Assembly: GCA_000442015.1 (NCBI GenBank)
Contig: KE560931.1
Location: forward strand, 1 to 62,177
Reading direction: 5' to 3'
DNA length: 62,177 nucleotides
Source of the DNA: Rozella allomycis CSF55
Lineage: Eukaryota
Under the pieces are notes generated by a model, which was not told where the DNA came from, ran no database searches, and saw nothing but the letters and a program-made list of their open reading frames with translations. Position numbers and translations under genes: made by a program. Positions 31,601 to 61,981 of the stretch are shown here, one piece after another; the stretch's first letter is position 1, and every line of letters begins with the position of its first letter.

Positions 31601-34600
31601 AGAGTAGAATAGAGCAAGTTTTGAAGGGAGAGATTGTAAAGAATGAGAATACGAGTTTGAAAAAGGAATCAAAGATGAAGAGTTTGGAGTTGATGATGAA
31701 GAGTTTATTTTATTGTTCAAAGATTGAAGAGTTAAAGGAAGAGGCTGTTGAGTGTTTGAAGAATGTGTATAAGATTTATGGGATATTGAAAGTGAGAGAG
31801 TATTTGGAGATTAGAGAATTTAATTTGAATTTGAATAGTGAAATTAAAGATATTGAAATATTGAATTGTTTAAATGAAATTTTGGTTGAAATTTTATCAA
31901 ATGAAAATTCAGAAATTGTGGAAACAGGAAAACAAGTTTTAATTTTGTTTTATGAGATTATTATTGATTTGTTTGAAAAGAATTATGAGATTATTGGAAA
32001 TTTGAGTATATTTTATCAAATAGCGAGTAGTTTTTGTACATTTTGTTATAAGAGTTTGAATGAAAAGAGAGGAGGATGTAGAGGATTGAAGTTGATTGTT
32101 TCAGAGATGTATTTTGGAAATAAATGGATTTGGATGCATGAAATGAAGTTTACGAGAGCATTGTTGTATATTTTGAAGGATGATGTACCTGATTTTAGTC
32201 GTGGGTTGATTAAAGAAGCGAAAGAGACGTTGAAGATGATATTTAAAGTTGGTAGATATCAGGGTGAAGATAAGGAGCTAAAAGAAGGTGGTTTGAATGA
32301 TAGTGTTAATGCAGAGAGAAAAACTTATTTTAATCAATTGATTTGCTTGTTGGTTGCTGAATTGTCTAATAGTAATGAACAAGTGAGAGAAACTATTAAA
32401 GAATCAGTTGAATATTTATCAGAATTGTATTCAATTTCAATAACAGAAATGTTTGTTCCAGTTAAAGATAGATTGTTGATGCCAATATTTGCTAAACCAT
32501 TGAGAGCATTACCATTTCCCATTCAAATAGGATACATAGAAGCAGTTAATTATTGTATGAAATTGAAACCAAGTTTATTGAATTGGAATGAAGAATTGTT
32601 GAGATTAATTCATGAAGCATTGGCATTAGCAGATGCAGAAGATCATGCTCTTGTATCAAAATCAAATCAACCAAAATCAGCTACTTTATTAACTAAATTA
32701 AGAGTTTCATGTTTATTATTGTTATCTTGTTCATTAGAATATGAAGAAATGCAACATCAAAAACAATTGGCTACTAGAAACAGAATTATTTCAATCTTTT
32801 TTAAATCTCTTTATGCAAGATCTGGTGAAATTGTTTTAGTAGCAAAGAATGGTCTTGGTTCTATTCTGGGTGGAAACAATCATAAAATACCAAAAGATTT
32901 ACTTCAAGTTGGGTTAAGACCTGTTTTAATGAATCTAAGTGATCACAAGAGATTAACAGTTCAAGGTTAACAAATATTATTTAATTAATTTGTAGGATTG
33001 GAAGGGTTAGCTAGATTGTTGGAATTATTGACGAGTTATTTCAAGGTAGAAATTGGAAAGAAATTGTTGGAACATTTAAACCAATGGGCAGATCCAAATG
33101 TATTAGAAGAAGCATCAAAGAAATCACTGCAAGATTCCCAAGAGATTAAAATAATCTCATCAATTCTCAATATATTCCACTTGTTGCCACCCACTGCTAA
33201 TATATTCATGGACAATCTAGTTATAATTACAGTTAAGCTAGAAACAATGTTGAAGAGAAGCAATAATAGTCCATTTAGAGATTCATTGATATGGTTTCTG
33301 CAGAGGTATGCGACTGAAGCGATTGACTATTTTCTGGAGAGGATAAAGAATAATCCTATTAGCAGATGTTTTGTGCAGCTGTTGGAGAATGAAAAGGCTG
33401 AAAAGCTGAGATTAGAGTTGAGAGAGAGTGCGCCAAAGTTTATGAGAGCTTTGAGTAATTTGTTGGAGAGGGAGGTTATCAATGGAATTCAAATCATTCA
33501 TGTAATGTTAAGGTAACGAATAATTTTAAATCTTCAATAGGTAAACAGAGTTAATAGCCTGACAATAGGTATTATGGGAATTGGCTGTCAGAGTTTCCTC
33601 AATTACTGAATTGGCTACAAGCATATTTTGATTCTATTTGTTCAAATGAAGGATTGAATGAGAATTTAATGTACTCACTGCGAGACACAACATCACCAAT
33701 GTTAATGTTGAGATCCTTGATAATCCATTCCAGAAACAATTTTAACATTAAACTGTTTTATTCAATGTTCAGAATAGTAGATTGCAATCCAACGCTATTC
33801 GACCAAACAATTTTAATCAATTTCATCTCTGAAATGATTCCATTAAATTATAAAGAAATGTTGAATGAATTTTGGACATTCTTTGTTGATCCAATAGTGT
33901 CTAATAACCAAAAGTTGTTTGTGTTGAAGTGGATGTTGATTCCTACTATAAAGAGGTACAAGATTGATGCAGAGTTTTTGGAAAAGTTTAAAGAGTGTGT
34001 GTGGAATGGCACGATGGTGTATCAGTTTGGTGAAATTGTGTTGTTGAATGTTATTGAAGCGACGTGTATTCTGCTGTATTGTGTACCTGAAGAGCTGAGT
34101 GAGTATAAGAAGGATATTGGAAAGTTTGTATTTAGTCTACTAGGTAATTTAAATATAACATTGTAATGATTAGGTAAAGAAATAGTTTAAACTTAAAAGG
34201 TGTGGATGATCCATTTACAAAGCAGGCTGCGTTTGTTGCCGCTTCATACTACATTAAAAACTTTGAAACACCAATTAAGCTAGTTCTACAAATAATAAAT
34301 TTAATGTTGAAAGCATCGCCCACAGAGACGAGGCATTTAATTAGACAGTCGCTGAATGTATTATTGTCTAGTCAGAATATCAGTGATTTGATTAAAGTGT
34401 TCCAGAGTGCGGTGATAGAAGAGGCGCATTTACCGCAGACGCTGATGATGGTGTGGCAGGTGTTGGTGTCGTTTCCAGATGCGTTTTATGAGTTTAGGAG
34501 TTATTTTATTCCGTGTATTGTGAATTCGCTGAGTAGGATTGGGTTGACTGTGTCTAATTCTGTTGATTCGAAGATGTTGACTGTTGAGTTGGTTGCTGTT

Positions 34601-37600
34601 ATTTATTCGTGGTTAGATGGAGGTGAGAGAGGTGAGAGAGGTGAAAAGGGAGTGGAGAAGAGAGATGAGAAGGGAGTGGAGAAGAGAGTGGATGCTCAAA
34701 TGAATATAGATCAAATGGATGTAGATCAAGAGTTTGAATTGAATTTGAATACTATAAATTTAATTGTTAATTATTTAGTTAAATTGAGTTTGAATGTGAA
34801 TAAAGCAGAGCTATTTGACAAATGCTGTTTGCTAGTAGGCAAGTTTATAAAAAAGTATCCCTCAGTGACCATTCAAATAAACAATTTTGAAAAGATATTT
34901 GTGAATGCAGAATTAACGATAGAAAGTACATCAACGTTGTGTGATGCATTGAAACTGATTGAGACTATATTGAAGGTTGATGAGTTTGATTCTGTTAGAT
35001 TTGTTTCTAGTCTTGATAAATGTTTTGAGAGATTGTTTTCTATTGATTATTTGAAAGTTAATGAAAGTGTTTTGCCTATTTTTGAAATGTTGATTGAAAG
35101 GAATATTATTAGTGAGAGAGTTGAAGAGAGGGAGGCATTGAATGAAGTTGAAATGAACACCAGTGCAAGTGCAGACGTTGTAACTGCATCACCCACTACT
35201 ACTACCACCAACCAGTCTAGTTTGAATGGTTTGATAAGTTTGTCTCATGATAATGTGATACAGCAGAGAAATTTGAATATAACATTGACATTTTTATCAA
35301 TATATTACAAGAATAAGCAAATGAATGAACAATTGTTGATTGCATTGTTGAGAATATTGATGATTTGTTCAAGAGACTTGCAACAGATAATAAATTGTAA
35401 TAAAACAGAATCAAATATAAATTTAATAAATATAGCATCAACACCCAATCTAACAAATGGAAATAATAATAGTAATAGTGTTAAATCTAGTATAACTTCA
35501 ATTCCAAGTGTAATGTTGACTATTAATACGTTGATTCTGTTGATTAATTTATGTTCTGATTGTATTCATTTATCATTTGAACACAAAAGGTAATCTAGTT
35601 TAAACTATTTTGAATAGAAATTATTTTGTTTCAATTTCAAGTATAGCAGAAAAGAGTAATGATAAATTATTATTAAAGAATATTTTTGAATTGATTAAGA
35701 GTTGGATTGTTAAATCAGAGAGTCCAACCATTAAAGAAAAGGCTCAATTAATGTTACGATTATTATGTCTAGAAAAAGATAAAGAATTATTTAAAGAATA
35801 TTTATTGCTAGTTTATGAAATCTACAAGAATCCAATCTATTCGAAATCAGAGTTGACTGTGAGATTGGAGCCTGCGTTTGTTTTTGGGTTGAAGAATGAT
35901 AATTATGAAATTAGAAATTTGTTTTTTGATTTGTTTGATGCTTCTATTCCTAATAGTTTGAATGTTAAATTAAAGTATATTCTGTCGTGTCAGAATTGGA
36001 GTTATTTTAAGGATTATTTTTATTTGAATCAGATATTCAATCTATTACTGCGAGTATATTCAAGTACTACTAGTTCAAATTCCACTTCTACTAGTTCAAA
36101 TCATTCAACTTCTACTAGTTCAAAACATTCAACTTCAACTTCTTCTCCTTCAATCTTTCAGTCAATTGAAAATTTATTGTTTTGTGATAAAAATTCAACT
36201 TGCTTTTATTTTACTGAATTATTTAAACTAATTTATTCAAAAATGAATGAAAATGAAAAGATTGAATTGAAATCTCTTCTTGTAACATTTCTATCTAAAG
36301 AATATCACATCAAATCACAATCATTAAGACCAAATGTTATTCAATGTTTCATGAATGCCATTTCTCAACTAGACCCTATCATTCCAATCTCTTGTCATCT
36401 TGTTAAATATTTAGCCAAAACTTTTAATTGTTGGTATTCAAGTATTATCTATCTAGAGAAATGTTTATCCAGTAGCAGTAGTTTTAATACTGATGATTCT
36501 AATACTAAAAATAATTCTTCAATGATAACTGATGTTCTATCTTCTCTTTACAACACTCTATCAGAAAACGACATGTTCTATGGCTTATGGCGAAGAAGAT
36601 CCATCTACACTGAAACAAACGTAGCGTTATCCTTTGAGCAATTCGGCATGTGGAAGCAAGCCCAAGAAATGTACGAAAGCGTCCAAAACAAAGCACGAGC
36701 GGGACATTTGCAGTTCACTGAATCCGAATACTATTTATGGGAGGAGCGTTGGATTGACTGTACCAGGAAACTGCAGCAGTGGGAGCTGTTGAACGAGCTG
36801 GGCAAGCATGAGAATAACTCTGATTTGTTGCTGGATGCGCATTGGCATAACTCTGATTGGATTCAAGACAAAGAGTTGATACTGCCGCTGGTTAAACAGT
36901 GCAAGAATAACCAGAAGAGAGTCTATGATGCGTTTCTTAATTTGTTGGCGATACAGGAGGGTAATGATAAGGGCATTGAATTTCAGCGTCAATATGAGAA
37001 TGGTAAGCAGATGGTATTTGAGTTATAATAGGTAATTAGTTCAGTTTAAAATGATTATAGGTAAGCAAATGTTAATGTTATTATTATAGGTATTCAAACT
37101 TGCTTGATTAAATGGCATTCTTTTCCAAATATTATCTCTTCTTGCCATATTCCACTACTAGTTGAATTTCAACAATGGTTAGAATTAAATGAAGCATTCG
37201 AAATTTATCAAAACTTTAATTCCAACAATAAACAACAAATGATTCAAAATGTCAAAGGTAAACTTATTAAATCGTTTTATAGTTAAAAGGTGCATTGTCT
37301 ACTTGGAGAGATAGGTTACCGAATATTTGGGACGATATTTCAATCTGGAGTGATCTAGTGGCTTGGAGACAACACGTGTATAATTCCATAAACAAGGTAT
37401 TCCAACCATTTGCATCAGAGCCCAATGCGGCACAGAATGCATCGTTTGCGTTTAGAGGATATCATGAAATTGCATGGATTATTAATAGGTTTGCGCATGT
37501 GGCGAGAAAGCATCAGTTGAATGAAGTTTGTGTTGGTTCTTTGAACAAAATTTACACGTTGCCTAATATTGAGATTCAAGTATTAGTTAATTTATATATG

Positions 37601-40305: not shown

Positions 40306-40368
40306 TAAATTATTTTTAGTGTGTGATTATTTTTAGTGTTTAAGGTGACTATTTAGGGGTGTGAGATC

Positions 40369-42437: not shown

Positions 42438-42542
42438 CTTTTTGTGGCGAGGTTACAAAATGCGAGTTCCAAGGAAAGCTGGTAGATTTATTGATATTTT
42501 AATGTTACATATTTGTTATGCGTTGATACAAAATTTATTAAT

Positions 42543-44024
42543 TTAGTAGCCGTATTTTTCATTCAAATGCGTCCTCCCGTCGCCCTTTTGATCAGCTGGC
42601 GGTTGCCATTTTTCTTCATGAGGAATCACCTTATTTCCTATCTCATCTTGATCGGAAAGCGTTTGAGGAGATGCTGATTTTATTTGAATGGTCTGTGGAC
42701 TGGGCAAAGTTGATTGGGGTTTTGTAACTGAGTACTCTTTTTTATTAGTCTTAGGCTCTGACTTTTGTTTCTTTTCAGCACCGCTTATGACATCATCCTG
42801 ATGGTCTGAGCCTTCAATTTTCCTCTTGGTTGGATTTTCAGCTATTTGTTTAACCGTCTGAGTTAAAAATTCAAAGGAACCTGCCGGTTTGGCGATCTTG
42901 ATAAGCTTTTCAAGCCTAGCTTTTTCCTTTTTAACATTTGTATAATAATTACCTTTAAGAGTTCTTCAATTTGTAAATTTTTGATATCATAATCTTCCTC
43001 TTTAATCTTCTTGTTTATTGAATTCATGTATGCATCCAAATCATCTTCTTCTTGCACAATATTGACTAGAATTAATAGAATAAAAGTTTACCTTCAAAGT
43101 CATTCTTGTCTTTTTCAAGTTCAGCTATACTCTTTACAACATGAGCTAACTTTTTGGTCAAAGAGTCAAAAGTTTCCACGGAACTTTCTTTTTCTTCATA
43201 TTTTTTATCTATTTAAATTAACTCTTCAGTTTACTTGTAGCGGTTCTATCAAAGTATTCGTCGTTTCCATCTTCGTCATCAGATTTTTCCCTTTCAATCA
43301 TTTCAACTACAAATTGATAACCTAAAATGCTTTTACCCGGTGCTTCAATCATCCCTTGTTCATCAAGTTGGGCTAGTGCATCCAATGTAGCGGCCTTGCG
43401 GGCTTCAGGTTTCGTTTTTTCACACCCCTTTCCAACTATTTTAAAGGGAGGCTCATCTAACGGTAATTCTATTTCACACAAGAAACTATCCTCCTTTTTG
43501 GAAAAAGAAAAGTTGGCTTCAACTCCGCATTGCTCTGTCCAGTCAGACAAAAATTCTATTGGATTCTCTTCATACCTTTTTCTTGGAGTCTTCACATTCT
43601 CTTGTCTGCTTTCAGGCTCAGGACCGTGAACAATAAATGAGCGAGTGCTTGCACCGAATTTCAGTATAAAGCCTGGATTCAACTTAATGTACGTTCCAGA
43701 CTGTATTTTCTCCTTGTTTAGGAAGGTACCATGCGCTGAACCCAGATCATAAACGAATAATTCATTCTTATCACTCTTAAATTGCAAAACTGCGTGGTAT
43801 CGTGAAACTGAGGCATGCTCCATTGACACATCACAGATTGGTAGTCTAGAATAATGAAATCTCCGTGTGTTTTACCGTCCAACAGTCAGAAATGATTTTC
43901 CAAGTTTGGACAAGTCAAAAATATCTAATACTGATCCTTGTTTGATTATTTCTAATTTCCATCCGTCGCAAATAGGCTCTTTGCTCCATTCTGGCTCTTT
44001 ATATTGTAAAACTGGCTCTTGCAT
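42543..44024 (-). CDS. Kanadaptin/SLC4A1AP-like FHA-domain protein (spliced)
   Basis: YKEPEWS, GRLPICDVSMEHASVSRYHAVLQF, DLGSAHGTFLN, dsRBD-like segment, C-terminal WQPPADQKGDGRTHLNEKYGY. Confidence 0.88.
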
Positions 44025-44046
44025 TATTTCTGAAATTTCACAACCT

Positions 44047-45416
44047 ATGGATCTTTGGGTTTTTCAAATAGGACAGTGTGGTAATAATCTGGGTCAAGAG
44101 CTATTCAGCACTGTCTTTAATTACGCAGAAAACATAATGAAATCAAATCCATGTAAAAAGAGAACACGATTTGTGAAAGAAACGCTAGATATCTTTTTCG
44201 AAATGGATTTAAGAACGATGAGTAATGGAATATTTGATTTTATAAAGAGCCGATTGCAAAAGCGTTTTGCATTGATACAGAACAGAAAGTTGTTAAATCT
44301 TTGGCTAAACAGAGGTCTTGGAGTTACAGCGATAGGCGGAAAGTTACGTTAAAATCTGGGGCCGCCAATAATTGGGCATATGGGTAAGATATTGTAAATA
44401 AAAATAAAGCTATTTTAAACTAGCCCACAAAGCAATTGATATGCTTGATCAAGAATTCGTACGTCTCAAGAAACGTAATAAAAGACTTACATTTTTAGTC
44501 CTGTCTAGCTTATCTGGTGGCACTGGAAGCGGGATAGGGACCTACGTTACGGAAATTTTGAGACTTAGATTTCCTGGTGCTTTTATTATAAATCAAGTCA
44601 TTTGGCCGTTTTTGCATGGTGAAGTTGTCCTGCAGCATTACAATATTCTGCTTTCATTAAGCCATTTAAATAAGGTCTATTTTGATTTTCATTTTGATAT
44701 ATAGGCATCCGATTTGATTTTAATACACGAAAACGACGATTTAACAAATATTTGCAAGAAAAGGTTTCACATCGAGAATGTTACTTTTAAAGATATGAAT
44801 AAATGGGTCATTAGATGCTTAATGCAGGTTCTATTACCCGTCGAAAACTCCGATTGCGAAGAATTCAGACGAAAAGTCTATGGAAATACTCGAAAATGCT
44901 ATTTAATATATTCGGCGCCTCAAGTACGAATGTATTATCGAATCTGATTCAGATATCGGAAGATTTAAAATCATATTCCAATTTCGATTGGAAAAACGTA
45001 GCCAAAAATTGCATTCAAATGGCTTTAACGAAGTGCGCAACCGACGAGGGAATTTCTTGGTACCCATCTCAAAACTCAGTCCAAAATTATATGAATATGA
45101 TAATTATATTACGCGGTCCAAAGTCATTGGAAAATTCTGAAAATTTTCAAAGTTATTCGCCACACGTCATGTATAATGAAGTTGGGATGCCTCAATTTAA
45201 AGATATAAGTTGCACTTTACTTGTGTAATTGTCATTTTTTATTACAATAGAGATTCATCGGCGATTTTTAATTTATTGAGAACATTGATGGGAAAAGTTA
45301 TTTTGATGATGAACCATAACGCTTTCATTTTTCAATATGAAAAACATGGGTGTTCTAAAGAGCATATGCTTGCTTGTAAAGACTTTATCAGTAATTTGAT
45401 GAATTCATATCGGTGA
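44047..45416 (+). CDS. TUBD1: Delta-tubulin (spliced)
   Basis: QIGQCGN, IDTEQKV, GAANNWAYGY, SLSGGTGSG, IWPFLHGEVVLQHYNILLSLSHL, HEND. Confidence 0.85.
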
Positions 45417-45441
45417 AATAAAGTTTTGTAAATTTCTTGTT

Positions 45442-46363
45442 ATGATAAATTCTGTTGCCCATTACTTGGAGGCTATAAATCCAGTTATATCTAAAATACC
45501 AGATTTACAAACAGACAATGCATCATGGTAATTAATGAATATTTTTTGTATTGAAGGTACCTCGGTCCTAGGCAGCACGTCATTGAGTTTCTAATACATA
45601 CTATCCTTTTACTTGTAACTATCCCTTTTGTATTTGGTATTTCATTAAACAATTTTTAATAGGAAAACTACCAAAAATCCCTGATCATTTATTCAGCCAA
45701 AAACTTAGGTTTCGTTCCACGTCTCTTGGAATATTCTCATTATTACTTCTTGTTTATCACAAGTCGAACAACAATACTTTAATATTTTTAATGCAACCAT
45801 GTCATGTAAACTTGATCATATTAATGTGCATTACTTTAATGACAACGCCTATACGAACATATCTTTTCAATGTGTATCTGCACAATCAATGGGGAGTGTA
45901 ACTAATATTGTTTTGTATTTTAGAAGTTGGCTTGCGATATTTAACCCAGATCTCCGTAGTCACCATCAACCGCTGGAAACATTCAACTTCTTTTTCGAAC
46001 ACATTGTATTAGTTGTTTTGCCAATATACTGGATATACTCTAAAAAGATTACAGTGTGGAAGTTTTCATGGAAATTTGCTTTTCAGTCCTATTGGTGTTT
46101 TGCAATGTATCACGCTTGGATACTAGAACCACTAAGTTACATTTCTGCTCAGAACTTGAATTATATGATGGCACCACCTCCAGGTATTTCTAATTATCCA
46201 ACAGTACAACAAAGGGCCACTTAGATTGTTTGGAACTTATTATCGTAATGTTATGTTTATTGCGGGATTTATTTTGACTGTGTCCACTAGATTAATTGTT
46301 GAGTCCATCATGTTGGTCATAAAGTACTGCAATAAACAAAAGAAAATATACAAATTAATGTAA
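45442..46363 (+). CDS. TMEM164-family membrane protein (spliced)
   Basis: WYLGPRQHVIEF, FLMQPCHV, FFFEHIVLVVLP, NLNYMMAPP. Confidence 0.75.
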
Positions 46364-46589
46364 TAATATATGAAGTTTAGGATTTCTTACAATTGGAATA
46401 AACACAATAAAACGAAGTGGTTATAGGTAGACTTCTTTAATACTTTGTCTCTATTAATTATGCAGTTGAGAATATTCTAATTTATCCTGGACAATTGGAC
46501 CAAATACGATTCAGTGGATTCATAAGTTTTTGAAAGCAACAATTTTTCTAAATTTAGGGCAATTTCAAAGTGTGAAATTTGAAATTGAT

Positions 46590-48030
46590 ATGATATTGGC
46601 AGTTGTCCTTTATGATTCAAAAGGGTATGTATTTAAATTTTCTACAAAAATTTTAGTTTATTCTTAGGAAAGCGGACATTCGGGGGAAATTCATGCAATC
46701 TTGACGGTGGTCACTGTGTACTTAAATCTGAGTGCATTAAGAAAGTTGGGTCAACGGCTATTATCCAATATAATGGAATTAACTATATAGCACAAATATT
46801 AACAAACCATGAAGGTATGTATGGTCACTAGTCCAAAGGAGATAGTCCCTCCTGCTTTGATGATTGAATATCTTAAGAAATTTTTAATGGTTTGGGATTC
46901 TATGAAATTGGAATCTTTTGACCCTGTTTGTTTCTATCAGGTAGAGGGCTAATAATTGTTTCGAAAGGTTGTAAATGCGATATTTGATCAAGGTTATGCA
47001 CTACTGGCAAAATCTACGCAAGAAATTCAAAGAAATCTTGGTGAAGCATCATTGATGAAGTCGATATCTCATTACATGTAATTTTGCTCTCGTTATTAAA
47101 ATTTGAGACCCTTACCAAAGTTGAGCCAGTCAAAACTACATTGGAGACCGAATGGCATTACGTATCCTCAAAATGAAATATATTTTGACATTTATGAAGT
47201 TGTATTTACAACTTTAACTTTAAATGGGTATGCATATGTCTGTGTTTCAAAAGGCCCTCTATATCATCAATGGAACTCTGTACTGAAATTTGGTGTAATT
47301 CAAAATTGTCAGGAATGCCAGTTGTTTCTGTCTCCTTTAATAATCCCAATACAATAGTTAACTCCCGTCTTCACCAATGTGTAAAATTGAAAAAGTTTGA
47401 AACTGAGAAAATCCTTAACTTTGTCCCACCTGATGGAAATTTCAATCTTCTGAAGTTCGTGTAAGCAAATCTATTCTACAGGAAGTAAGTACAACTCCTG
47501 TTAATGTTCCCAAATTACCATTCCAAGTTGTTGCCAATTTAACTCGATATGAAAATAGCGTGGGTAAACTAATAGTCAAAGCAAAGTCAACCATTGCCAA
47601 CAAAAAGTTTGAATTTTTTAGAGTGAGGCTATGTTTGCCGGATCAAATCACAATTGGGCGTATCGAAACTAAAACTGGGAAATATGCAAGGAAAGAAAAA
47701 ATTGATGTAATATTTGCTGCGAAAACTTACACAGCAAAGTTATCTGGAATGGGAAGTAGTGGATTTATCTGATAAAGAATATTCATCGTTGAACATATAC
47801 GATATTGTCGGAGACCTAGAGAAATTAGTATCCATTGAAGTAGCATTTAGTTTAAAGCACTTTTCTTTATCCAACTTAAAGATATCTTCAGTTCAAGTGA
47901 CTGGAGAAAACTATAAAGTCACCAAGGTAAATCTCCCGGTTAGTAATAAGAGGGTGTGAAAAGTTCAGTTAAATCTGGGCATATAGAAGTCCGAATCTCA
48001 CATAATAGCAACAACAATAAAATTATTTAG
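46590..48030 (+). CDS. Adaptor complex mu subunit (AP-3 mu-like), spliced
   Basis: HWRPNGITYPQNEIYFDIYE, KLSGMP, LHQCVKL, FVPPDGNF, SNLKISSV, GHIEVR. Confidence 0.8.
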
Positions 48031-48068
48031 TTTGGATTTTTTTTTCTCTTAGCAACGCCATTCCAAAA

Positions 48069-48851
48069 ATGAAATACCCTATAGGTTTCAATAGTCCAAG
48101 ATACACCCAATCCAAGGATTTAGAGAAAGCATATAATAAGCATTGTGAGAGATTGAAAAGCATGGAAGCAAATGTCGATAATCATCCACCAAAGATTTAT
48201 GATCACCTGGTTAATAATGCGAAATCTGTAAAAACAACAAAAGGTAACGCCATTATCATTCCGAAATTGTAGCCCGCCAAGAAAAGATCCACAACGACAA
48301 TATGGTATCAAATTTAGTCGCACATTGACAAGGTTTTACTTAAGCGAATGAACCATCACTTTACCCGCAACAATTTAGGTATTTCTGCACCTCCATGGAG
48401 AATGAGCAGGAATACTTTTTCAGAACATCGGCTAAGACAAGTGAAACAAATAGAAAAGGACAATGAGGTACATTTACAGCATTTAATATAATTTCAGTTT
48501 GTTCTAAAGCGAATCAACGACAACTTCAAAGTCAGTTACTATTCCAAAGAGAAAATGGCAACTGAGGAAAAGAAGCGGGAAGAAGTCTTGCAGATAATGT
48601 CGCATTTCCGTGGAGTGCCTAGATCTATTCCTCCCACAAAGAAGAATTCTAAAAAGGAGAGTGAAGTTAAGAAAGATGAAGTAAAGGCCAAGGCTAGCGT
48701 CAACGCTATCAATAAAAGCAATAAGAGCGATCCGCCTAAAGGAAGAACAAACTATTACCATTCAAAGAAGCTCATTGTCGTAGATTCTCCATACACACCA
48801 ACTTATAATTACAAGAATGCAAAGAATAACATTCTGAAAATAAGCGTTTAA
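48069..48851 (+). CDS. CFAP97/KIAA1430-domain ciliary protein (spliced)
   Basis: YNKHCERLKSMEANVDNHPP...HL; repeated I-x-x-DN-x-x-LxR motifs. Confidence 0.6.
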
Positions 48852-49025
48852 ACGAGGCTCAATTAGCCAGTTTGAGTTTGAGAAAATAAAACGTTTTATA
48901 ATAACGTTATTTTATAGTTAATCAATTTCTTGAATAAAATAGCCGAATTTGAATCCTTTAGCGATTCAACTCGGTCTTTGAAATTTCTTTTGACCCTTAA
49001 CCCGGCATGATTGACCCTGGTAGCA

Positions 49026-50812
49026 ATGTTTTACTCTACAGATATTTTGTCGATGGGCAAGCAAGAGGGATTAACAACCATTTGGTAATAAGTATGTGAA
49101 TATACAACAGGCTTGCCGCCACCATAGGACCACGCTCACAAACCAAGAAACTCTCTAAAAAGGATCTGATAGGCGTTAATGTTGTCAATGCATGGTATTA
49201 TAACATTAAATGTATTATAGCGACTACTTGATTCATTTGCAGCAACCGGTAGCATTACGTTTAACAAGTTCCATGATGGTTGGTGTTTCCAGAGTCTATC
49301 AGCAGCAATACAATTTTTATTATAGTAAAGATATATGATTTGATGGAATAGATGACGTGCAGTCTATGTGGATGAAAGTTAAGCAGCACTCTATTGCAAC
49401 CAATACTGTTAATATTAATCTTGGAGCGAATCCAGTGTAAAACATAGTAATTAAGCTTATCTAGTGCGGATGTTATACCGATGGATGATTCGTTCATTCA
49501 AATGTGGAAGACATCAAATGAAGGTGATCGTATAGTCAATGATGTTTTGAATTGGGAGGCACATGTTCCATCGATTTCTCCAGAAGCACAAAGAAGACAT
49601 ATTGATCATGCAGTTCCTTCATCTACGGGTGTTTCAACACCAGTTAAGCCATTTAGAATGGAAACTCCTTCTATGAGTACTTTAAGTGGAGTACCAATGC
49701 CGTTTTCAAATGATTCATTTGATTGGGAGTAAATATTTGATCTCTTTTGTAATTAGAATGGATGAACTACAAATTGGTGGCTTGGAAGAACCTTTGAATA
49801 TATTTGACTTTCAAACTTTGGAGAAGGAAGAAAAGAAGGGAAAAAATTTGCTGTTCGAAGGGCTTGGTGACATTGATATGAAATGGGATGAAGATCAAAT
49901 CCCATCAATGAAAGCTGAAGTGCCAGAAGTGACCAACAAAAAGAAGAAACCACAAAAAAAGAAAAGAATTGACGAAGATGAAGAAACGCAATTGACAATG
50001 AGAAATTTAGCTGAAAACCAAGACAATTATCTCGCAAACATGAAGGCCAATTCGATACAAAGAAAGAAAATAAAGTTTTTAGAAAAAGAAAAGTACAATG
50101 TTCTTTTTCAGAGTCACGTTTTGAAAGATTTTTCTGTAGATTTACAAAATCTATGGAATTCAGAAATGTTAAGCAAGGGTGTTAAGGTTCATGAGATTCA
50201 GGATCCATTAATTATGGAAACTCCCAAGAGAAAAAAGAGAAAAGAAGAAATTGAAATTCAAGAAGATCAAAATTATGATCAAGTAGGATTTGACGAAACA
50301 ATTGAAATGGGAAGATTTGAAGAGGATTATTCAAATTCAAACCCAGTTGAAACTCCCTGGTTCTCTGATCGACATTCAAGTATTGCAACAAAATCTCTTT
50401 TACCTCCAAGCGTCAAAACTGAATCGTAATTAAATCTAACCAACTTTATAATAGAGTTAGGAACAGCGTCATTTCTTCAACCTCAAGGGCTCCTTCTTCT
50501 ATTCTAGATAAATACATTGCTGAGAATTCATTTTCTAACCTTGAATTGCCCAATGAATCCGAGAACTTTTTAGTGTAATAATTCATTAAAGTTGAAAAAT
50601 AGATTTGTAAAACAAAAATGTGATTTATATGGTAAAACTAAATTCATTGATATTTTGCCGTTAAAAGAAACATCCAAGACTGTTGCGGCTCTTGCTTTTT
50701 ATAAAGTCCTTGGTAAACCTTGCTTGGTTAATTAATTCTAGAACTTTCATCTAAGAATGTTATCAAGGCAAAAAATGTACACAATGACATTGAAATAACA
50801 CTTAACAAATAA
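49026..50812 (+). CDS. REC8: Rad21/Rec8 kleisin, Rec8-like (spliced)
   Basis: MFYSTDIL...TIWLAATIG...KKLSKKD...VNAC...ALRLTSSMMVGVSRVYQQQY; C-terminal winged helix AALAFYKVLEL. Confidence 0.75.
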
Positions 50813-50887
50813 ATTAGTTTTATGATTCACTCACAATAACTTGAAAGTATTGGACAAGATATTGATAATTTAGTGAATAATTATTTA

Positions 50888-52093
50888 TTAAACCCTTTCA
50901 ATTACAACAGCAATACCTTGACCTCCACCAATGCAAGCAGAAGACAGTGCATATTTTTTCTTTGTCTTTAGTAAATTGTAAACTTGATGCGCAATAATTC
51001 TGGACCCAGACGCAGCAAGTGGATGCCCAATAGCGATTGCCCCACCATGAACATTGGTTTTGTCCAAATCAAGTTTCAATGATTTAGATACAGCCAGAAA
51101 TTGGGAGGTAAACGCTTCATTAACTTCAATTAAATCCATTTGATCTAAACTAAGATTTGCCTTTTTCAATGCGCCTTTCATAGCAGGAACAGGCCCAATG
51201 CCCATTACACGCGGTTCTACACCAGCCACGTGGTAGGAAATAATTTTAGCCAATGGAGTTAGTTTATATTCTTTTACAGCTTCTTCCGAAGCGAGAATCA
51301 CAGAAGCAGCACCATCCGTAATCCCAGATGCATTGGCCGCAGTAGTTACCCCGTCTGGCTTAAATATTGCCTTCAACTTAGATATAATCTCTACATCGGT
51401 ATCCTTTCTCGGAGTTTCATCAGTGTCAAACATTCGAGTACCCTTTCTACTATTGATTTCTATTCCAACAATCTCGTCTTTAAATGCATCATTTTCATTA
51501 GCTGTTATATTAATAAATTATTGTTTACCCGCAAACCATCTTTTATGACTCTCAACGGCCCATTTATCACACTCTTCTCTATCAATGCTATATTCTGAAG
51601 CAAGGTTCTCAGCAGTAACCCCCATTGGTGTTGGAGCAGGGTATTGGTCGATCAAAGTTGTATATAACGAATCTTCCATTCTGGGCTGAACTCCATACTT
51701 TATTCCCCATCTACCTTCCCGAACGACAAATGGGCATTGAGACATGCTCTCAGCACCACCAGTCAAAACAACCTTGGAATCTTTGCATACTATTTCCCTG
51801 TAGCCCTGGATCAATGACTCAAACCCAGAACCGCATAGTCGATTAATAGTAACAGCAGGCGTAGATACAGGTAAATTCGAGCGAAGAGCAACGTGTCTTG
51901 CTAAGTATGCAGCATCAGTTGAAGATTGGATGACGTTACCAAAGATTACAGAGTCAATCGGTGTCCCTTCAGGTAATTGCTTCAAAGCAGCTTTCGATGA
52001 AATTGTTCCTAACGAAGTTGCTGAAAACTCCTTCAATGAACCACCAAAGGTTCCAAAGGCAGTTCGTTTTGCGGCGACAATGTACACACTCAT
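50888..52093 (-). CDS. 3-ketoacyl-CoA thiolase (ACAA2-like)
   Basis: TINRLCGSG, NEAF, GGAIAIGHPLAASG, SACIGGGQG; one intron. Confidence 0.93.
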
Positions 52094-52160
52094 TACGTAG
52101 GTAAACTAAGCCCCAATTAATAATTGACGTTAAATATATCAAAATTTATAAAGTCTATAT

Positions 52161-53464
52161 CTAATATTTATTCACATAAACAACATTGGGCTTTGAGAAT
52201 CCATTAAAGGTTGATGATGAAGCAAGTGTATACGCGCCCATGTCTTCAAAGATAAGAAAGTCACCAACTTCAAGTAATGGAAGTTTCGTCTTTTTAACAA
52301 GGCAATCCATTGAATCACAAGTTGGGCCCCATAAACTACATTCCAGAATTTCCGTGGATTCATGTCGTTGGAAAACAATTGGTTCTATTTCTACATGATC
52401 AAATATAAGGCAATTAAAAGATCCATACACCCCATCATTAAGATAATACATTGCGCGTCTTTCTGTTTCAGCGGTTGCGTCTATTATTCTTCTTGATGTC
52501 ACCTGCACAACCAACGTGTAAGCGCCCGCCACATAAAACCTTCCTGGCTCCGAAATGATTTTGATATCTTCCCCAAACAATCTATCAATTGAAGATCTGC
52601 AAACTTCTGCAATCTTTTTAAAGAACTCTGTTGACGTCTTTAAACCCGGGAAACCACCGCCGATATCGAGCAGCTTGAATTTATAGCCACAAACATTCTC
52701 CGCCATATCAAAAAGGTTTCTTGCACTTTGGATAGCTTTTTGATACGACTGAATATCACCACAGTTGCTGCCAACATGGAAACTAATTTATAAACTTCTC
52801 TGCTTGTTACCTTATACCTACGACGTTAAGATCCATGCTCTTTGCTTTCATGATAAGTTTCTCCGCTCTTTCCATGGAAGCACCAAATTTCAGACCGAGC
52901 TGACATTTAGACTTGGAATCATCTGTTAAAATGCGTAAAACGAGTTCAGCTTCCGGAAAGTGCTTTTGGACCTTGACCAATTCGTCTTCATTATCAAATG
53001 TCATGACATTTATTCCCTTTTCCTTTGCATATGTAATCGACGACCCTTGCTTGCATGGATTAGCGTATATAATGCGACTTGCATCTACTCCAAGGCTCAG
53101 CACAAGGTCGATTTCCGCTCTGCTCGCGCAATCGAAATTGGCACCCAACGCTGCTAATTTTTCGATAACTCGGGCATCCGGATTGCATTTAACAGCTAAT
53201 ATCACATTAGCAAATATGAATACCATAATACGGATGCACACGGGGCATCTCGCTTTTCCACAACATATGCTGGCTCTCGACGACATCTAAATCGGCGACA
53301 AAGAACGGTTCATCATTATTTAATAGTTCATGATTAATTAAAGTTTGCATAGCAGCTTTGGACAGCGATGTTGGTGAGTATGATGATTCGGTGGTTTCCA
53401 GGGGTACAAATGGATTAGAGCATAATTTCTCATGGACGGGCACAATAATTTGAGTGGAAGACAT
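52161..53464 (-). CDS. SPE1: Ornithine decarboxylase (3 exons)
   Basis: PYYAVKCNPD, FDCAS, YANPCK, FHVGS, LDIGGGFPG, SEPGRF, WGPTCDSMD, MGAYT. Confidence 0.95.
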
Positions 53465-53555
53465 GAGGTGATTCCCTTTGGCGAGATTTATTTATAATGG
53501 TGTGTGACACGCGTTCTATTTTTTGACGGGGAGTGTAGGAAAAATAGGAAAATTC

Positions 53556-53891
53556 ATGAAAGTTAAAATTAACAGTAAAAATAGGTTGGAGTGGTGATAG
53601 GGTAAGATGGGTTTGTGAAGTTGTACTAGTTGGAAGACTGCTGCGATTTGGAAGTGGAATGTGGAGGACGATGTTTGTGGGATTTGCAGAGCGCCGTTTG
53701 AAGGGTGCTGCCCTGAATGCAAAATTCCTGGGGATGACTGTTCGCTGAGTAAAATGGTTGTGGTTTACTTTATAGTTTGGGGAGCTTGCAAGCACTGTTT
53801 TCATTTGCATTGCCTGATGACCTGGCTGCAGTCGCAGAATGAGAAGCAGCAGTGTCCAATGTGCCGACAGGAGTGGCAATGCCTGAGTTGA
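53556..53891 (+). CDS. APC11: Anaphase-promoting complex RING-H2 subunit APC11 (probable 1-nt exon at 53601)
   Basis: MKVKI...W...[28 protein letters not shown]...CKHCFHLHC...CPMCRQEW. Confidence 0.93.
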
Positions 53892-53969
53892 GCAAGTAGA
53901 ATTTTGAATTTAAATAAAATATTTTTGTAGTTTGTACTTTGGAATGTTTTATGAGTGGCTGTGTTAAGA

Positions 53970-56583
53970 ATGGAAGAGAGTATCCCTGTTAAGCATGTTG
54001 TAAAAATATATTTTGCTGTTTGAAAGGCGCCCGAGGACGTACCGTATGAAGAAGAGTTGGTGAGAAACCCGTTTTATGTCAAGGGCTGGCTGCGCTATAT
54101 CCAGCACAAGCGCGAGTATTCGTACGAGGCCCAGTGTTACGTGTATGAGAGGGCGCTGTTGCATCTTCCGCGCAGTTATAAAATATGGAAGCAGTATTTG
54201 AACCTTCGAACGACGAGGGTGCAGACCAAGTGGATATTGGATCGGGAATATGAGGTTATTAATATGTGTTTTGAGCGAGCTCTGATGCATTTGAATAAAA
54301 TGCCGAGGATATGGCTTGACTATGTGGAGTTTCTGATCAAGCAGAGGAAGGTGACGTTAACGAGACGGGTGTTGGATAGAGCGTTGAGAGCGCTGCCTGT
54401 GACGCAGCATGAGAGAATATGGAAGGTGTATTTGCAGTTTGTTGTGAGAATTAATTTGCCAGAGCTTTCTGTGAGGGTGTATAGGAGATATTTGCAGGTA
54501 CGTGGAGATTGATGGATATAGCGTAGTTGTTTCCAGAAAAGACGGAAGAATATATAAAGTATTTGAGAGAGAATGAGTGTTATGATTTGTGTGCGCAGAA
54601 GATAGTGGATGTGATTAATAATGAGAATTTTGTGAGTGTTGAAGGGAAAACGCATTATATGTTTTGGGTTGAGTTGTGTGAAATGATTTGTGAGCATCCC
54701 AAGGAAATGAAGGGGATTAAAGTGGATGCAATATTGAGGAGTGGAATACAAAGATTTCAAGACCAGAGGGGTAAATTGTGGACATCATTGGCTGATTATT
54801 ATATTTACATGGGACAATTTGACAAGGCCAGAGATGTGTATGAAGAAGGGATCCACACTGTGATGACAGTGAGAGATTTTACTCAAATCTTTGAAGCGTA
54901 TACAAAGTTTGAAGAGACGTTGTTGAGTGGGATGATGGAGAAGGTTGGAGAGGAAGAGATAGATTTGAGATTGGGATATTTTGAGAGATTGATGAAAAGA
55001 AGATCAATTTTGTTGAATGATGTGATGTTGAGACAAAATCCGAATAATGTGCATGAATGGCTAAAGAGGACAGATTTGTTTAAAGAGAATGAAAGAATGT
55101 TAATTGAAACATTTGAAAATGCAGTGAGAACTGTGAATTCTAAACAAGCGGTAGGAAAATACAGTGAACTGTGGATTGAATATGCGTTGTACTTTGAAAG
55201 AAAGGGGGATATTGAAGAAGCGAGTAGAGTGTATGAAAGGGCGATAGAAGAAGAATATAAAACAGTGAATAGTTTAGCAGAAGTTTGGATTTCATATTCA
55301 AATTTGTTTAAAGATAAAAGAAGGTCAATTGAAATAATGGCAAGGGCTGTTAGACCAACAAAGGGATACAAAGTTGATTATCATGATGAAGTAACCATAG
55401 AATGTTTTATTTAGTAGATGATTGAACCAAAGCATAGATTATTCAAGTGTTTAAAGCTGTGGAATCATTATGTAGATTTAGAAGAAGCGTTTGGAACATT
55501 TGAGACTACTAGGGCTGTTTATGAGAGAATTTTAGATTTGAAAATAGCGAATTTGCAAACAATAATAAATTATGGATTATTTTTAGAAACAAATGAACAT
55601 TTTGAAGAATCATTTAAGATTTATGAAAGAGGAATTGATTTGTTTGGATATCCAATGGCATTTGAAATTTGGAATATTTATTTAGCTAAATTCATTAAAA
55701 GATATTCAGGAACAAAATTAGAAAGAGCAAGAGATTTATTTGAACAAGCGTTGGATAAATGTCCTCCAAAATATTCTAAAAATATTTATTTAATGTATGC
55801 TAAATTAGAAGAAGATTTTGGTATTATTAGACATGCTTTAAGAATCTATGATAGAGCAACTAAAAATGTTGCTAAAGAAGATAAATTACAAATCTTTAAA
55901 GTTTACATTACAAAAATTGCTCAATCTTACGGTTTAACTTTTACGAGAGAAATTTATGAAAAAGCTATTCAAAATTTAAATGATTCTGACGCTAAAATTA
56001 TTTGTTTAGAATACGCTGAAATGGAAAAGAAATTAGGTGAAATTGATCGTGCAAGAGCCCTCTATTCTTACGCTGCTCAATTCTGTGATCCAAAAGTAAA
56101 GAAATTATTTCTTTTATAATAGACAAACCCTGAATTTTGGAATGTTTGGAATGATTTTGAAGTTAAACATGGAAATGAAGACACTTTTAGAGAAATGTTA
56201 AGAGTTAAAAGAAGCGTTCAAGCTTTATTCAACACTCAAGTAATAATTTTATTTCTCTTTTCATTAAAGTTGGAATCTATCGCTGCTCAACACGTCAAAG
56301 AAGCAAAAGATGCTATGGAGTCTCTTGAAATTAACGTTGATGAAGAAACTAACCAAATTGATAATCAAACTGCTGATGATCAAATTGAATCAATTGATAA
56401 CGTTGAGATTCAAAACAATGAAATTGATGACCAAGAAGAGTATCTCATTTCTTCCATTCTAATTTTAGATTAAACGATAAAGTAGAAATTGAAGCGTTGC
56501 CTGAACAAGTCTTGAAAGTTGTTGCCACCGAAGAAGAAGAACAAATAGTAATCGGCGCTAAAGCTCGCTTCATGAAAAAATAA
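53970..56583 (+). CDS. SYF1: Pre-mRNA splicing factor SYF1/XAB2 (HAT repeats), spliced
   Basis: [62 protein letters not shown]. Confidence 0.95.
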
Positions 56584-56624
56584 ACTCTTAAACTTTATTT
56601 TTATTTTCCTTCAACTCCTTGGTG

Positions 56625-58783
56625 ATGTCTTTCATGCAAAAGGAATTATCAGACTTGATTTCCTTTTACTCTGACTGGATCTCCCAAAACAACAACCTCA
56701 AAAATGAAACATCTTTCATCATCCTCAATCATCTAGTTAATGACCTGCATTTACTAGCTGCCAAAGTTAAAGCCACTAAATCAGTACTCTTCTAAAATTC
56801 TTCCCAAAGGATTCCACAATGAAAAAATCTCTTTCAAATCTCACTACTCTCTTCTCCTCCTACAAAGATTCAGACACAGAATCTCCAAAGAAATCTTCAG
56901 ATTCTCACGACCATCACAGAAACAATGTTTTCAAATTCTTCTCTGCAAAATCCAGAGGTAATTACTCCACATATTTACAATAGATTCAGAACACAACGTC
57001 ACACGCTCATACTCGGATCCATCCGTTTCCTCGTACAACTCTTACAAAGACACTACTGAGAAATACACCCAATCTTCAACTTCCAATTCTCCACTCAAAG
57101 AAATCGAAACAGTTTCTAATAGCGCTGATTCTGACAATGCGCAAAAAGACTTTGCATTGACTGAAATGAAGAAGCATTTCGCCGGTATCAAAGAGAATAT
57201 CCATAAACAGTCAAACTCTGTTTCTTCCCAAGAAGATATCTTTCTCAAAGGTATAGTAATGGACTTTATCGGCAACGTAGAATTTTCTCAGAATAATTCT
57301 ATTGTTAGGAAACCGTCTAAATCGGCGGAAAAGAGGAAACCTTTGAAATGGTTTGTCAGAGAATTCAACAAGAATCCTTCAAAGGTAACAATTCGCATGT
57401 TTTATTAATTCAGGTACCCAGACTTTGTTAATGTGATATATAGGTTCAAAAATTCATTAGGAAATAACAATAGGCTATTAACAGTCTGGTCGAAGAAAAG
57501 TATCTAGAGTTGGATCCTCAATCAGTGTCATCCTTTCTTCATACAGAAAAGCGTTTAAATAAGAAGAAAATAGGTGAATATCTAGGCGAACAGTAAATTT
57601 CAATGGTACATATTATAGCGACCCATTCAATCTCAATGTCTTGAAAGCATTCGTCGGTGACTTCAATTTTCAGGGTCTAGATTTTGACGTCGCATTACGG
57701 TAATCATCTCTATATTCAATTGTAGGAAACTTTTATCTGAATTCAGATTGCCCGGGGAGGCTCAGAAGATTGACAGAGTTGTCAACACATTCGCCGCACG
57801 GTACTGTGAAAACAACCCTACAGTTTTTGAATCACCAGGTACTCAATTCCAACAAATAACATTAGACACCGCCTATGTCCTTGCATTTTCGCTAATCATG
57901 CTGAACACAGATGCGCACAATCCTAACGTCAAACACAAGATGACACTCAGAGAATTTATCAGAAACAACAGAGGTACTACTATTAACAAGTTACAATAGG
58001 CATTAATCACCAAAAAGACTTGCCCGAAGAGTTTTTGAAAAAGATGTTTTGCAATATCACCGAAAACGAAATTAAAATGGACTCGATAGATGACGAGCAA
58101 CAGAAAATGGAGAGCTTGATGGCTACGCTAGTGGCGAAACCGGATGTATGATTATATATGGGTTTTCAAAAGGATTTGAGCTCGCCGGATAGATGTCTCA
58201 TTCAGCAATTCAATGTTGGGATGCTGACTGAAGTTGATACTGAGCCTGTTGAGCATTCTCGCGTGTTGTATCTTTTCAATGATTTAATTTTGGTAATCAA
58301 TTTGGGTTTAACGTATTAGATTACTAAAGCCATAAAGAATGGGCGCAAATTTCAAGTAAAATCAAAATACTGCATTGGCAATGATACGTGTGTTGAAAAT
58401 ATCTCATTAAATGGTAATGCATAGCCCATGTTTTTTATAGATCATCCGTATTCCGTTAGGTTATTTTCAAACACGTCGGATAAAACAAACTCTTTCATTT
58501 TTGATTTCAAGATACAAAATAACAGGAAACTGTTTTTTGATTCCATAAAGGAAATTCTCGCTGAAATGAAAGGCGAGATTTACGAGGCTAGCGGTAAAGA
58601 CTTCAGGTGATAGTGTTTAGATGACGATTTCAATGATCATACTCTTACAAAGGCCGCCGCTGCAAAAGCTATTCTTGAGCAAACATATGCGGCAGATGAA
58701 GGGAATAGATATAAGAAATTCGGATCGTTGAGAGAAGCAAGGACAAAATTACATGCCAGGTTTATTCCTGTAAAGGATCCATG
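56625..58783 (+). CDS. Sec7-domain ARF guanine nucleotide exchange factor with PH-like domain (multi-exon; ends approximate)
   Basis: [58 protein letters not shown]. Confidence 0.88.
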
Positions 58784-58888
58784 ATATGCTGGCTGTTATC
58801 GGCGTAATTTAAGTTTTTGAGGTCCTTTGAAGATATATGCAATAAAATTATAGTTTTTAATCTAGTTTTTGAACTGACCACTCCGCGT

Positions 58889-59365
58889 TTGGTGTTTTGA
58901 ATAAATCTTTAATTTCATGTTGTTAGCGGCTCGGCTTGGCTGGACCTCGGTTGGCACAGTGGCTTATTTTGATTCGAAAGCCGAGCCGAGTGTCTCCGAA
59001 ATTGTTGCCCTGGAAGGTTTCTCTCATATCCGGGTCCCAATTAGTCCGTTGATGTTTTATGTGATGTCTTTAACAATCATTAGTAAAAACTCTCGAGACA
59101 GGAAGTTTGCTGGAAATCAAGATTCGAACCAGCCTATTAATGTTCCACTAGTCATAAAGATAATTAATTGAATATGCGTTAATGTTAAAGCTCGATGGAT
59201 TGGATTTATATAAATAGAATGGGTTGAGTAAGAAAGGCTTAAAGATAAAGTTATCAGAAAATTCTATCAGTGTAATTGAACATGCATCAAATTTATTAAC
59301 CTCCGTTGAAGCCGAGCTCGTCCAAGTCACTCAGCCGAGCCAAGCCAGAGAAGCGAAAACACCTA
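58889..59365. repeat. Possible degenerate non-autonomous DNA transposon (MITE-like)
   Basis: GGCTCGGCTTGGCTG near 58928 and CAGCCGAGCCAAGCC near 59332 form an imperfect inverted pair; further GCCGAG pentamer-type repeats; GGTGTTTT/AAAACACC at the outer ends. Confidence 0.35.
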
Positions 59366-59412: not shown

Positions 59413-61981
59413 TTATTGATTGTCAATTTGATGAAACTTTTTAAAGGCTTTAACAATTTTATCACCTAGCAAAGTAACAGTTTCATCATTTCGTAAATCC
59501 AGCCATAGGTGCAAATCATTTTCAAAAATTTCATAGTCTTTATCAAGACCTTTATACGGAAGCTCTAAATGAATTTTAATCGTCCCTTTCATTAATTCCT
59601 TTTTCAAGCCTAATGCATGCAAATTGGGAGATTCTGAGTCTCGATTGGTGGCGAAAGTAAGATCAGAACGCACAGAGAGAAAATTACTTTTGAACACTTG
59701 AGTGGGAACAGCTTCTCCTACCTTCCAATGTGTCTTTAAAGCAAAGAAAAATGGAAACAAAATAACATCTGGACCAGCAAATACAGATGGAAAATACACC
59801 GAGTCGCATTCCTGGTGAAAATGGATTTTGACATAGTCATACATGTCAACGTCTCGATTGCTATCTCCAATTTTGATATTTGTTGCGCCGACCAAGCGAA
59901 AATGTTGAATTCCTGGCGGGATGCTATCTTTTGGTATTCTTTTCAAAATATCTAAATCACAAACTGCTTCACCACTAAACATTCCAATCAATCGCAAACC
60001 TAAAACATATTCAAGCAATTTCCCGCGGTAAGTCGCTGGATATTTAATAAAATCTTTTGAAGCGAAAATGCTAGAAAAGAAAGATAAAATGTCGAAGGAA
60101 GCTCTGGGATTGTCAGAGTGTGCCATTAACGATTTCAGAAAATTAAATCCAGAAAAAACAGCCATGTATTCAGCCATGTAGCCGCCATTGTTTTCGAGAA
60201 ACAGCAAATGTGAAGAAATTTCAGCGTAAATTGAATCAACAAGAACCACATGTCTTTTCCCTTCGCTCAATGCGACCGCTGAAAGTGTTATAAAATCGAC
60301 TAGTTCGTTTAACGCATCAACGACAAAGTTGTCCTTATTAAAGAAAGGTACAAATACTCTATTTTGACCTGTCGGGATATATTCATCAGGCATAAATCGA
60401 CACCAAAAGCTGTACAAAGAGTAATCATGAATATTCACAGGCATGTCTGGATTTTGATGAGGACAACATACTGCATCAATGTACCAATGAGCTATTTCAC
60501 GCGCAGTTTTGCTGAATTGCGTTTGCGAAACATTCCGATATGCTATGTCCTTAAAGAGTAATACAACATAGGTTGCAACAAATCTAGGCCGACCAATGAA
60601 GGCGCGACCCAAAGCTTCGAGCAAACCACGATCAAACGCTTCTTTAGCAAATACTAAACAAATAAAATTTTTAACATCATTTTCGTTGTAAAAATCAACG
60701 TTAAATACACAACCGATGTAAGAGTCTTTCGTAGCGTCGTAAACGGCCCCTACTGCCGACTTTGAAAGGGACACGTGGCGAAGACTAAAGGCGGTGCCAC
60801 AAAAGAGCAAACGGCAGCGGTCACTAATTTTAAGAGCGCATCGACACAAGGCATAGTATAGGGGGCGTAAAGTGTCAAACCGTCCTGTGCCATTAAAACA
60901 GTGAGGCAATATACTTAAAGAGAGGTCTACTTCATCAAATACAATAACCGTGCAGAAGCGAATTTCAAAATGCTTTGTGATCTTACCTTTATAAAGCACA
61001 TCGGACAATGCGTTTGCCATCTTCTTACAGCAGTGTCTAGACCGTTGAAAATCAAGCCAATCTGAGGGCCCGTAATTTGTATTTGAGTCCAGCAAAAGAC
61101 CCAAAAAAATTTCGCGAATTTTAATTAAAGTGAAAAGTCCATGGTAAAAGTGCAGTTCTAATAGACCAGGATCGTTTTGGTTTAACCCTATAAGCCATTC
61201 AATTAATACTTGAAAGCCACAATGCTCGTTTGATATGTCAATGTATAGTCCAAAGTTTTGCCGCAAAATGTCAAAAGCCCTCCGTGTTTTTCCTGAACCA
61301 GATACATTCACAAGCAGATTGATAGGGGAGGTCATTTGTTCAAGAAGATTGTTTGCCTTCTCAAAGGCGCCCGGAAATTCAAAATCGACCATCGAGTATT
61401 TGCCTGTTATTTTGGGAATAGGCGTAGCCACGAATGCGCACTTGATGGCGTCTAAATCAAAAGTAATGCTGTCATATTTTTCTAAAGTTTCAAAGTGATA
61501 CCTACAAGCATTCCTCATTTCCTCCTTTGAAAATTCATCTCCTGTATCGGGGCCTAGCTTATATGGATCAGGGACCATGACGATGAGCATATCTTCCTCA
61601 CTTTCTCCCAGTCCATCCAGAGGAACAGAAGATTTTAAGGACTCGATTTTTTTAAAATTATTGTGTGCTGTGTCAAAACCAATATTATTTTTGTAAACCA
61701 GAAGTTGAGCAGGAACGTAAACAGAGAGTATTTTTTCGTTCTTGCTATAGACTGCATCACGAAACTGCCAAATATATGAAGNGGTCAAAAACAATATTAT
61801 TTTTGTAAACCCGAAGTTGAGCGGGAACGTAAACAGAGAGTACTTTTTCGTTCTTGCTATAGACTGCATCACGAAACTGCCAAATATATGAAGAAACAGG
61901 CAATGAGACAACATCTGTAGCTAAGCCTTTGTACGGTTGTCCGTTTGAATCCAAAAGTGTAAACCAAACAAAACGGGACAT
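59413..61981 (-). CDS. Crinkler (CRN)-type protein: CR ubiquitin-like header + P-loop NTPase + REase-like C-terminus (5' region has assembly duplication at N 61782)
   Basis: FVWFTLLDSNGQPYKG...FRDAV...LxVYKN...LIVMVP header; SGSGKT Walker A; VIVFDEVD Walker B; GKLLEY and FPSVFAGPDV...ALK REase-type motifs. Confidence 0.8.

Follow-up and report, generated by a model that had tools for sequence, protein, structure and literature searches.

How is an intervening sequence of 89 nt removed on a contig whose other introns mostly measure 26-32 nt? The question is raised by the Sec7-domain ARF-GEF gene of Rozella allomycis CSF55, in which the 89 nt consist of three abutting units that each carry the ends of an intron. 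Recursive splicing is an occasional way to shorten long introns. We studied the array in the context of the window, the whole 62,177-nt stretch analysed, which is an AT-rich eukaryotic contig with a G+C content of 31-41%. Our results favor a reading, with a probability of about 0.7, in which the array would be removed stepwise through zero-length exons, forced by length-limited splicing.

The 89-nt array and its host gene

The best match of the Sec7 open reading frame is a Rozella allomycis CSF55 protein (98% identity), and a Pfam search with the public model P0241 returned Sec7 (E=3e-72) and IQ_SEC7_PH (E=1.4e-8). Besides the 89-nt array, the gene is interrupted by nine introns of 26-27 nt, which makes 10 intervening sequences in all. 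The relevant features are as follows:

56819..58784, + strand: host gene, Sec7-domain ARF-GEF with an IQSEC-type PH domain (gene parse and Pfam)
56984..57384, + strand: preceding exon, which ends in AAG and holds the beginning of the Sec7 domain (parse and homologs)
57385-57473, + strand: whole array, 89 nt, three abutting GT..AG units
57385..57413, + strand: unit 1, 29 nt, GTAAC..TCAG; donor at the 59th and acceptor at the 55th percentile of single introns
57414..57443, + strand: unit 2, 30 nt, GTACC..ATAG; donor at the 22nd and acceptor at the 20th percentile
57444..57473, + strand: unit 3, 30 nt, GTTCA..ATAG; weak donor (1st percentile) and strong acceptor (95th percentile)
57474..57592, + strand: exon downstream of the array, matching Sec7 profile positions 19-57 (homologs and Pfam)

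An earlier note on this DNA had described three GT..AG units of 29, 30 and 30 nt at these coordinates, with YAG ends and an in-frame TAA in each unit if retained. All of this was exact: a unit that is left in alone carries an in-frame TAA, the acceptors are CAG, TAG and TAG, and no base lies between the units, which meet as CAG|GT at 57413/57414 and as TAG|GT at 57443/57444. The unspliced form and the six partly spliced forms all reach a stop ahead of the next intron, which bears out the note's view that no unit is a coding microexon. When all 89 nt are removed, the protein alignment across the site is gap-free in every one of the 15 homologs that reach it (18 were aligned, three of which start downstream), and P0241, a prediction, makes the same 89-nt cut. 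Given this alignment and the stop in every partial form, exactly these 89 nt have to be absent from the predicted mature message. By the same homology it keeps none of the internal bases; a coding microexon, whose bases would add residues or set the frame, was not found among the units.

Each unit fits the U2-type mini-intron of Rozella in being a GT..AG sequence of 26-32 nt that is AU-rich and ends at the first AG from base 26. Units 1 and 2 have the usual GTA donor, while unit 3 begins with GTTC, and T at position +3 occurs in only 1 of 105 single introns. The G+C content of the units is 0.23-0.33, compared with 0.36 in the flanks, and no likeness was detected between any unit and the flanking exons (p 0.27-0.98). 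The units had also been said not to be obviously alike, and their global alignment scores (-3, -2 and -2) agree with this when set against 5,460 pairs of single introns (mean -0.33, sd 3.7). With pairs scoring at the null mean, the array is neither a recent tandem repeat nor a repeated intron-generating element. The best outside match, between unit 2 and the ODC intron (score 14), was rejected as chance, as 18% of 300 shuffled sets reach the same score.

In another assembly, the protein P0001 reads through two introns of this gene (57839-57865 and 58414-58440, + strand). Its differences from the window, which lie inside both introns and at a few positions in exons, may point to a second, diverged haplotype.

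Introns, arrays and splice signals across the window

To place the array among its neighbors, we curated 109 intervening sequences in the window with a self-trained parser and by eye. The large majority (105) have a length of 26-32 nt (mean 27.8, sd 1.6); the exceptions are four of 56, 56, 87 and 89 nt. Each of these four, the sole sequences longer than 33 nt, splits exactly into GT..AG units of 26-30 nt. The choice of single introns relied on a length prior (28 +/- 2.5 nt) and on inspection by eye, in most cases with no homolog check, so both the 26-32-nt range and the first-AG rule given below are partly circular. About 20 short candidates were left out altogether, among them about 16 of 26-32 nt; uncertain cases outside the set are RPB5 4037 (23 or 32 nt), the first TRA1 intron (GC donor) and ISW1 11088. 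Parser calls excluded as coding or doubtful were 8646-8623, 14109-14132, 28091-28063, 17809-17783, 26441-26464, 26568-26597 and 19885-19864, and the count leaves aside stretches with no clear gene (1-700, 16590-17420, 23700-24950 and 40310-41860). A permissive gene parse merged genes and was therefore not used. In 13 harder genes, 14 forced parses all read through with introns of at most 36 nt and called for no further long intron; judged by eye, the long-intron alternatives would delete apparently conserved coding stretches.

Next, we asked how often such splits arise by chance. When the interior of the 89-nt sequence was shuffled, a split into GT..AG units of 25-33 nt appeared in 60 of 200,000 trials, and when the interior was drawn from pooled real intron interiors, a split into 26-32-nt units appeared in none of 200,000. 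For the four sequences of 56, 56, 87 and 89 nt the shuffled counts were 2,481, 5,973, 438 and 60 per 200,000, a joint probability of 2.4e-10.

The earlier note had proposed that the pattern is not limited to TRA1. Besides the Sec7 triple, this holds for a pair of introns in APC11 parted by a 1-nt exon, and TRA1 itself has two doubles in addition to its triple:

33513..33568, + strand: TRA1 double, 28+28 nt, in a poorly conserved region; gap-free mainly against P0122
34144..34199, + strand: TRA1 double, 30+26 nt; gap-free against 13 foreign homologs
37003..37089, + strand: TRA1 triple, 29+29+29 nt; full removal gap-free against homologs
53575..53629, + strand: APC11, 26-nt intron, 1-nt exon at 53601 and 28-nt intron (best reading)

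Units 1 (37003) and 3 (37061) of the TRA1 triple are alike, with a score of 13 that lies above all 5,460 single pairs, a likeness that is modest given 198 of 20,000 shuffles and that concerns one of eight pairs. Both public models cut the 33513 array differently and one does so at 37003, so two of the three TRA1 arrays are mis-cut in at least one assembly; P0121 also retains a 27-nt TRA1 intron at 31090, which it reads as coding. When metagenomes were scanned with an alignment of TRA1, there were 466 confirmed matches; of the 80 listed, with 31-45% summed identity to P0121, none was close to Rozella. The RNA run X1 gave 21 partial contig matches on 38800-58790, mostly of low identity, none of which covers the Sec7 array site; they speak neither for nor against splicing there.

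The APC11 gene (53556-53891, + strand) has an apparent single-nucleotide exon near its start, like plant APC11. With this reading the conserved Trp falls at residue 8, its place in the solved chain. Cutting out all 55 nt at once puts the sequence out of frame, and nine other single cuts keep the frame but add or delete residues. Should the position of the microexon equal that in plants, the microexon could be very old.

The single introns share a GTA donor (103 of 105), mostly end in TAG and have 27% G+C. No positional consensus for a branch-point motif was found in them, and none able to support long-range pairing was detectable; TGCT is enriched (12 against 3.9 expected) at no fixed position. 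Among the 105 singles, an AG ending at bases 8-25 is skipped 71 times in 1,865 positions, which is the background rate, and ten of these lie at bases 22-25. From base 26 on none is skipped in 112 positions (Fisher p=0.03 against bases 8-25, partly circular). The rule "first AG from base 26" predicts 10 of 10 unit ends in the arrays. Two introns appear to stop at this distance at a TG:

18484-18510 and 3195-3222, + strand: introns of CFAP298 and P5CR apparently ending in TG at base 27-28, with CT next; the next AG is at base 40 and 39

With the TG acceptor, CFAP298 aligns gap-free and retains a G-x-x-P motif that is present in 12 of 12 foreign homologs; the motif is lost in the public model, the same in two assemblies, which takes a weaker GT..AG pair instead. 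The P5CR case rests on the frame and on what we take to be the pattern of the family. These TG acceptors and the APC11 case point the same way, to a machinery that prefers short pieces.

Of 16 exons that start with GT, five are read as coding although an AG follows at 26-33 nt, and three of these five start with GTT; a GT with an AG at the right distance is thus not sufficient. A required single intron in TRA1 (32966) has a GTT donor, so such donors can work. Other unusual sites in the window are a candidate GC donor in the first TRA1 intron (28672-28705, + strand, by eye) and a GTC donor that is the best parse in a delta-tubulin-like gene (44675-44704, + strand). A cation-channel gene (6084-6115, + strand) may extend beyond an intron whose last bases are CG (29 nt) or TG (32 nt), or it may just stop at 6087.

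Routes of removal and origin of the array

On the stepwise reading, the array would consist of three Rozella introns of the ordinary kind, parted by zero-length exons and cut out in a separate splicing reaction each. The spliceosome would define introns over a fixed short span, consisting of a GT(A) donor, an AU-rich interior and the first AG from about base 26, and by this definition the donor at 57385 would pair with the AG at 57413. Ligation would then set the AAG of the exon against the next GT, producing a new donor, and the cycle would repeat for the following units. The AAG at the end of the upstream exon allows donors to be rebuilt in this 5'-to-3' direction. Since every cut leaves either this AAG or the AG of the previous unit against the next GT, any of the six orders would work and end in the same product, and all six are equal on paper.

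We counted 10 paths that remove the array in short steps: the six orders of the abutting units and four nested ones. The nested paths avoid the GTTC donor and all start from rare donors. The weak donor of unit 3, together with the four nested paths out of ten, makes the second junction (57443/57444) less secure, as judged from the sequence, than the first (57413/57414). Unit 3 is the weak point of the stepwise reading, and the five coding exons with an AG at unit distance from their GT count against it as well. One nested piece is:

57433..57460, + strand: hypothetical nested 28-nt piece with a GTG donor and its AG at 57460, by which units 2 and 3 would be removed with no use of the GTTC donor (removal-path enumeration)

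The best-surviving rival, which we regard as unlikely, is that unit 1 leaves alone while the last 60 nt leave either by a nested route, for example as this piece followed by a 32-nt remainder, or in one step, the GTTC donor having decayed. The first-percentile donor of unit 3, the share of nested paths and the fact that GTT at exon starts is usually ignored all speak for it. Against it, the nested pieces likewise begin with rare donors (GTG, GTT), and the first AG that the donor of unit 2 encounters at or beyond base 26 belongs to a TAG ending precisely at base 30. Moreover, the GTT donor at 32966 is required and the GTC donor at 44675 is the best parse.

Somewhat less probable still is excision of the 89 nt in one step, with the internal AG|GT sites as unused leftovers of duplication or chance. 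Both ends of the 89 nt are canonical, and P0241 treats the array as one intron, a prediction and not RNA. Microsporidia do splice longer introns: Encephalitozoon cuniculi efficiently splices a 76-nt intron with an extended branch point, its other introns being about 25 nt, so a tiny-intron spliceosome can take out a longer intron (PMC6349667). In Rozella, however, the donor would have to skip the AG at base 29, and no such skipping occurs in the curated single introns; the shuffles make a chance array rare, and unused sites would have been lost just as all similarity between the interiors was. The conservation of the junctions between fully diverged interiors is best explained by use of the sites, as the shuffles and the dissimilarity of the units suggest, and in this respect we concur with the earlier suggestion of selection on the internal splice sites.

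A cause other than splicing (an assembly duplication, a hidden microexon or an exon turned intron) is very improbable: units 2 and 3 are multiples of three, and the window has two Ns with a short duplicated stretch adjoining the one in PGK, but the dissimilar units are not a mis-joined repeat, alignment with the 15 homologs shows neither a lost nor an added residue at the site, and the units resemble the flanking exons neither in sequence nor in G+C.

A bolder form of the stepwise reading, to which we give even odds, is a spliceosome that acts as a ruler. Its limit for a single cut would lie not far above about 32 nt, and it would accept a non-AG acceptor before reaching farther. Long introns would then exist only as polymers of units, recursive splicing would be obligatory, and length would change in whole units by AG|G slippage. 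The Sec7 triple would be an old array, with diverged interiors and junctions under selection.

As to origin, the array probably arose by intron duplication between AG|G repeats. A whole intron would be duplicated in tandem by slippage between the repeats at its two ends; the interiors would then diverge, and the junctions would be kept since a longer piece is not efficiently removable. The repeat shared by the intron ends is 3-5 nt at the four arrays compared with a mean of 1.4 at single introns (p=0.001, post hoc), the Sec7 array having the shortest (3 nt), and the next exon starts with GT at three of the four arrays compared with 13 of 105 singles (p=0.01, post hoc, n=4). Both observations fit duplication by slippage, of which the Sec7 array would be an old case. 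No trace of duplication was found among its units, whose scores are no higher than those of random intron pairs; such complete divergence argues for selection rather than recent duplication. The same arrangement would also result if new introns were inserted independently at AG|G sites.

Comparison with known systems and other features of the window

The closest parallel in the published texts available to us is BOT1 (CNAG_07884) of Cryptococcus neoformans, where recursive splicing at a zero-nucleotide exon divides a 375-nt intron into 210 + 165 nt (10.1101/224170). Removal of the Sec7 array would likewise be recursive splicing at zero-nucleotide exons. The case of Cryptococcus was shown by junctions and branches (10.1101/224170), whereas that of Rozella is predicted from the sequence. 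The Sec7 array also differs in having three units of the size standard for its genome (29-30 nt), and in Rozella every long intron in the window is such an array.

Recursive splicing in flies and mammals concerns very long introns (Duff 2015 and Sibley 2015, as cited in 10.1101/224170 and PMC10156609). The Sec7 array has in common with these a YAG|GT junction in which the acceptor abuts the donor and no exon base is kept. In the tabulated sets from Drosophila and mammals the host introns have medians of hundreds of kb, and the feature is a minority one (PMC10156609); the Rozella segments, in contrast, are about 30 nt, seemingly set by an upper length limit. Fungal stwintrons and complex intervening sequences, for instance those of Lipomyces (PMC7138796), are short and are excised by consecutive U2 reactions under intron definition, as the array would be. 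As described there, stwintrons are nested and removed in a fixed order, internal first (PMC7138796), whereas the Sec7 units abut and any order would work; only the nested rival would come close to a stwintron sensu lato.

Tiny-intron genomes are known from Stentor (PMC9505925), Paramecium bursaria (PMC12862383) and microsporidia (PMC6349667), and share with Rozella a narrow length peak, an AU-rich interior and a weak branch consensus. In P. bursaria, intron length affects splicing efficiency (PMC12862383). The word "recursive" is absent from the main text of the Stentor (PMC9505925) and P. bursaria (PMC12862383) papers, and the rare long introns of microsporidia have, in the available text of PMC6349667, an extended branch point rather than internal splice sites. 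In plants, APC11 has a single-nucleotide exon (PMC4674806, PMC8831610); its introns are, like those of the Sec7 array, parted by a minimal exon, but plant APC11 keeps one base in the message and the Sec7 array would keep none. The literature covered on Rozella introns and recursive splicing, with subscription papers and supplements outside its scope, yielded no description of such arrays.

If the stepwise reading is true, recursive splicing would be the sole route by which a short-intron spliceosome goes beyond one unit, and adjacent spliceosomes or successive rounds would act on 30-nt pieces with no exon between them. The arrays would be a natural place to test pure intron definition, to learn the greatest length that a tiny-intron spliceosome can handle and to study how introns are gained when a whole intron is duplicated. 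To this the Sec7 array itself would contribute a case with fully diverged units.

Other features of the window were recorded in passing. Both Ns (15880-15935 and 61660-61900) adjoin short duplicated stretches and are probably scaffold-gap artefacts. Three related-looking long genes at 20069-26685 are nearly intron-free, with signal-peptide-like starts and no obvious family. On the minus strand, 59413-61920 holds an intronless 800-residue open reading frame with a P-loop-like motif, which may be Crinkler-like; upstream of it, on the plus strand, 58905-59350 is a stretch with apparent inverted ends. Finally, the region 28000-37000 shows strong GC-skew swings within coding sequence, up to 0.55 in TRA1.
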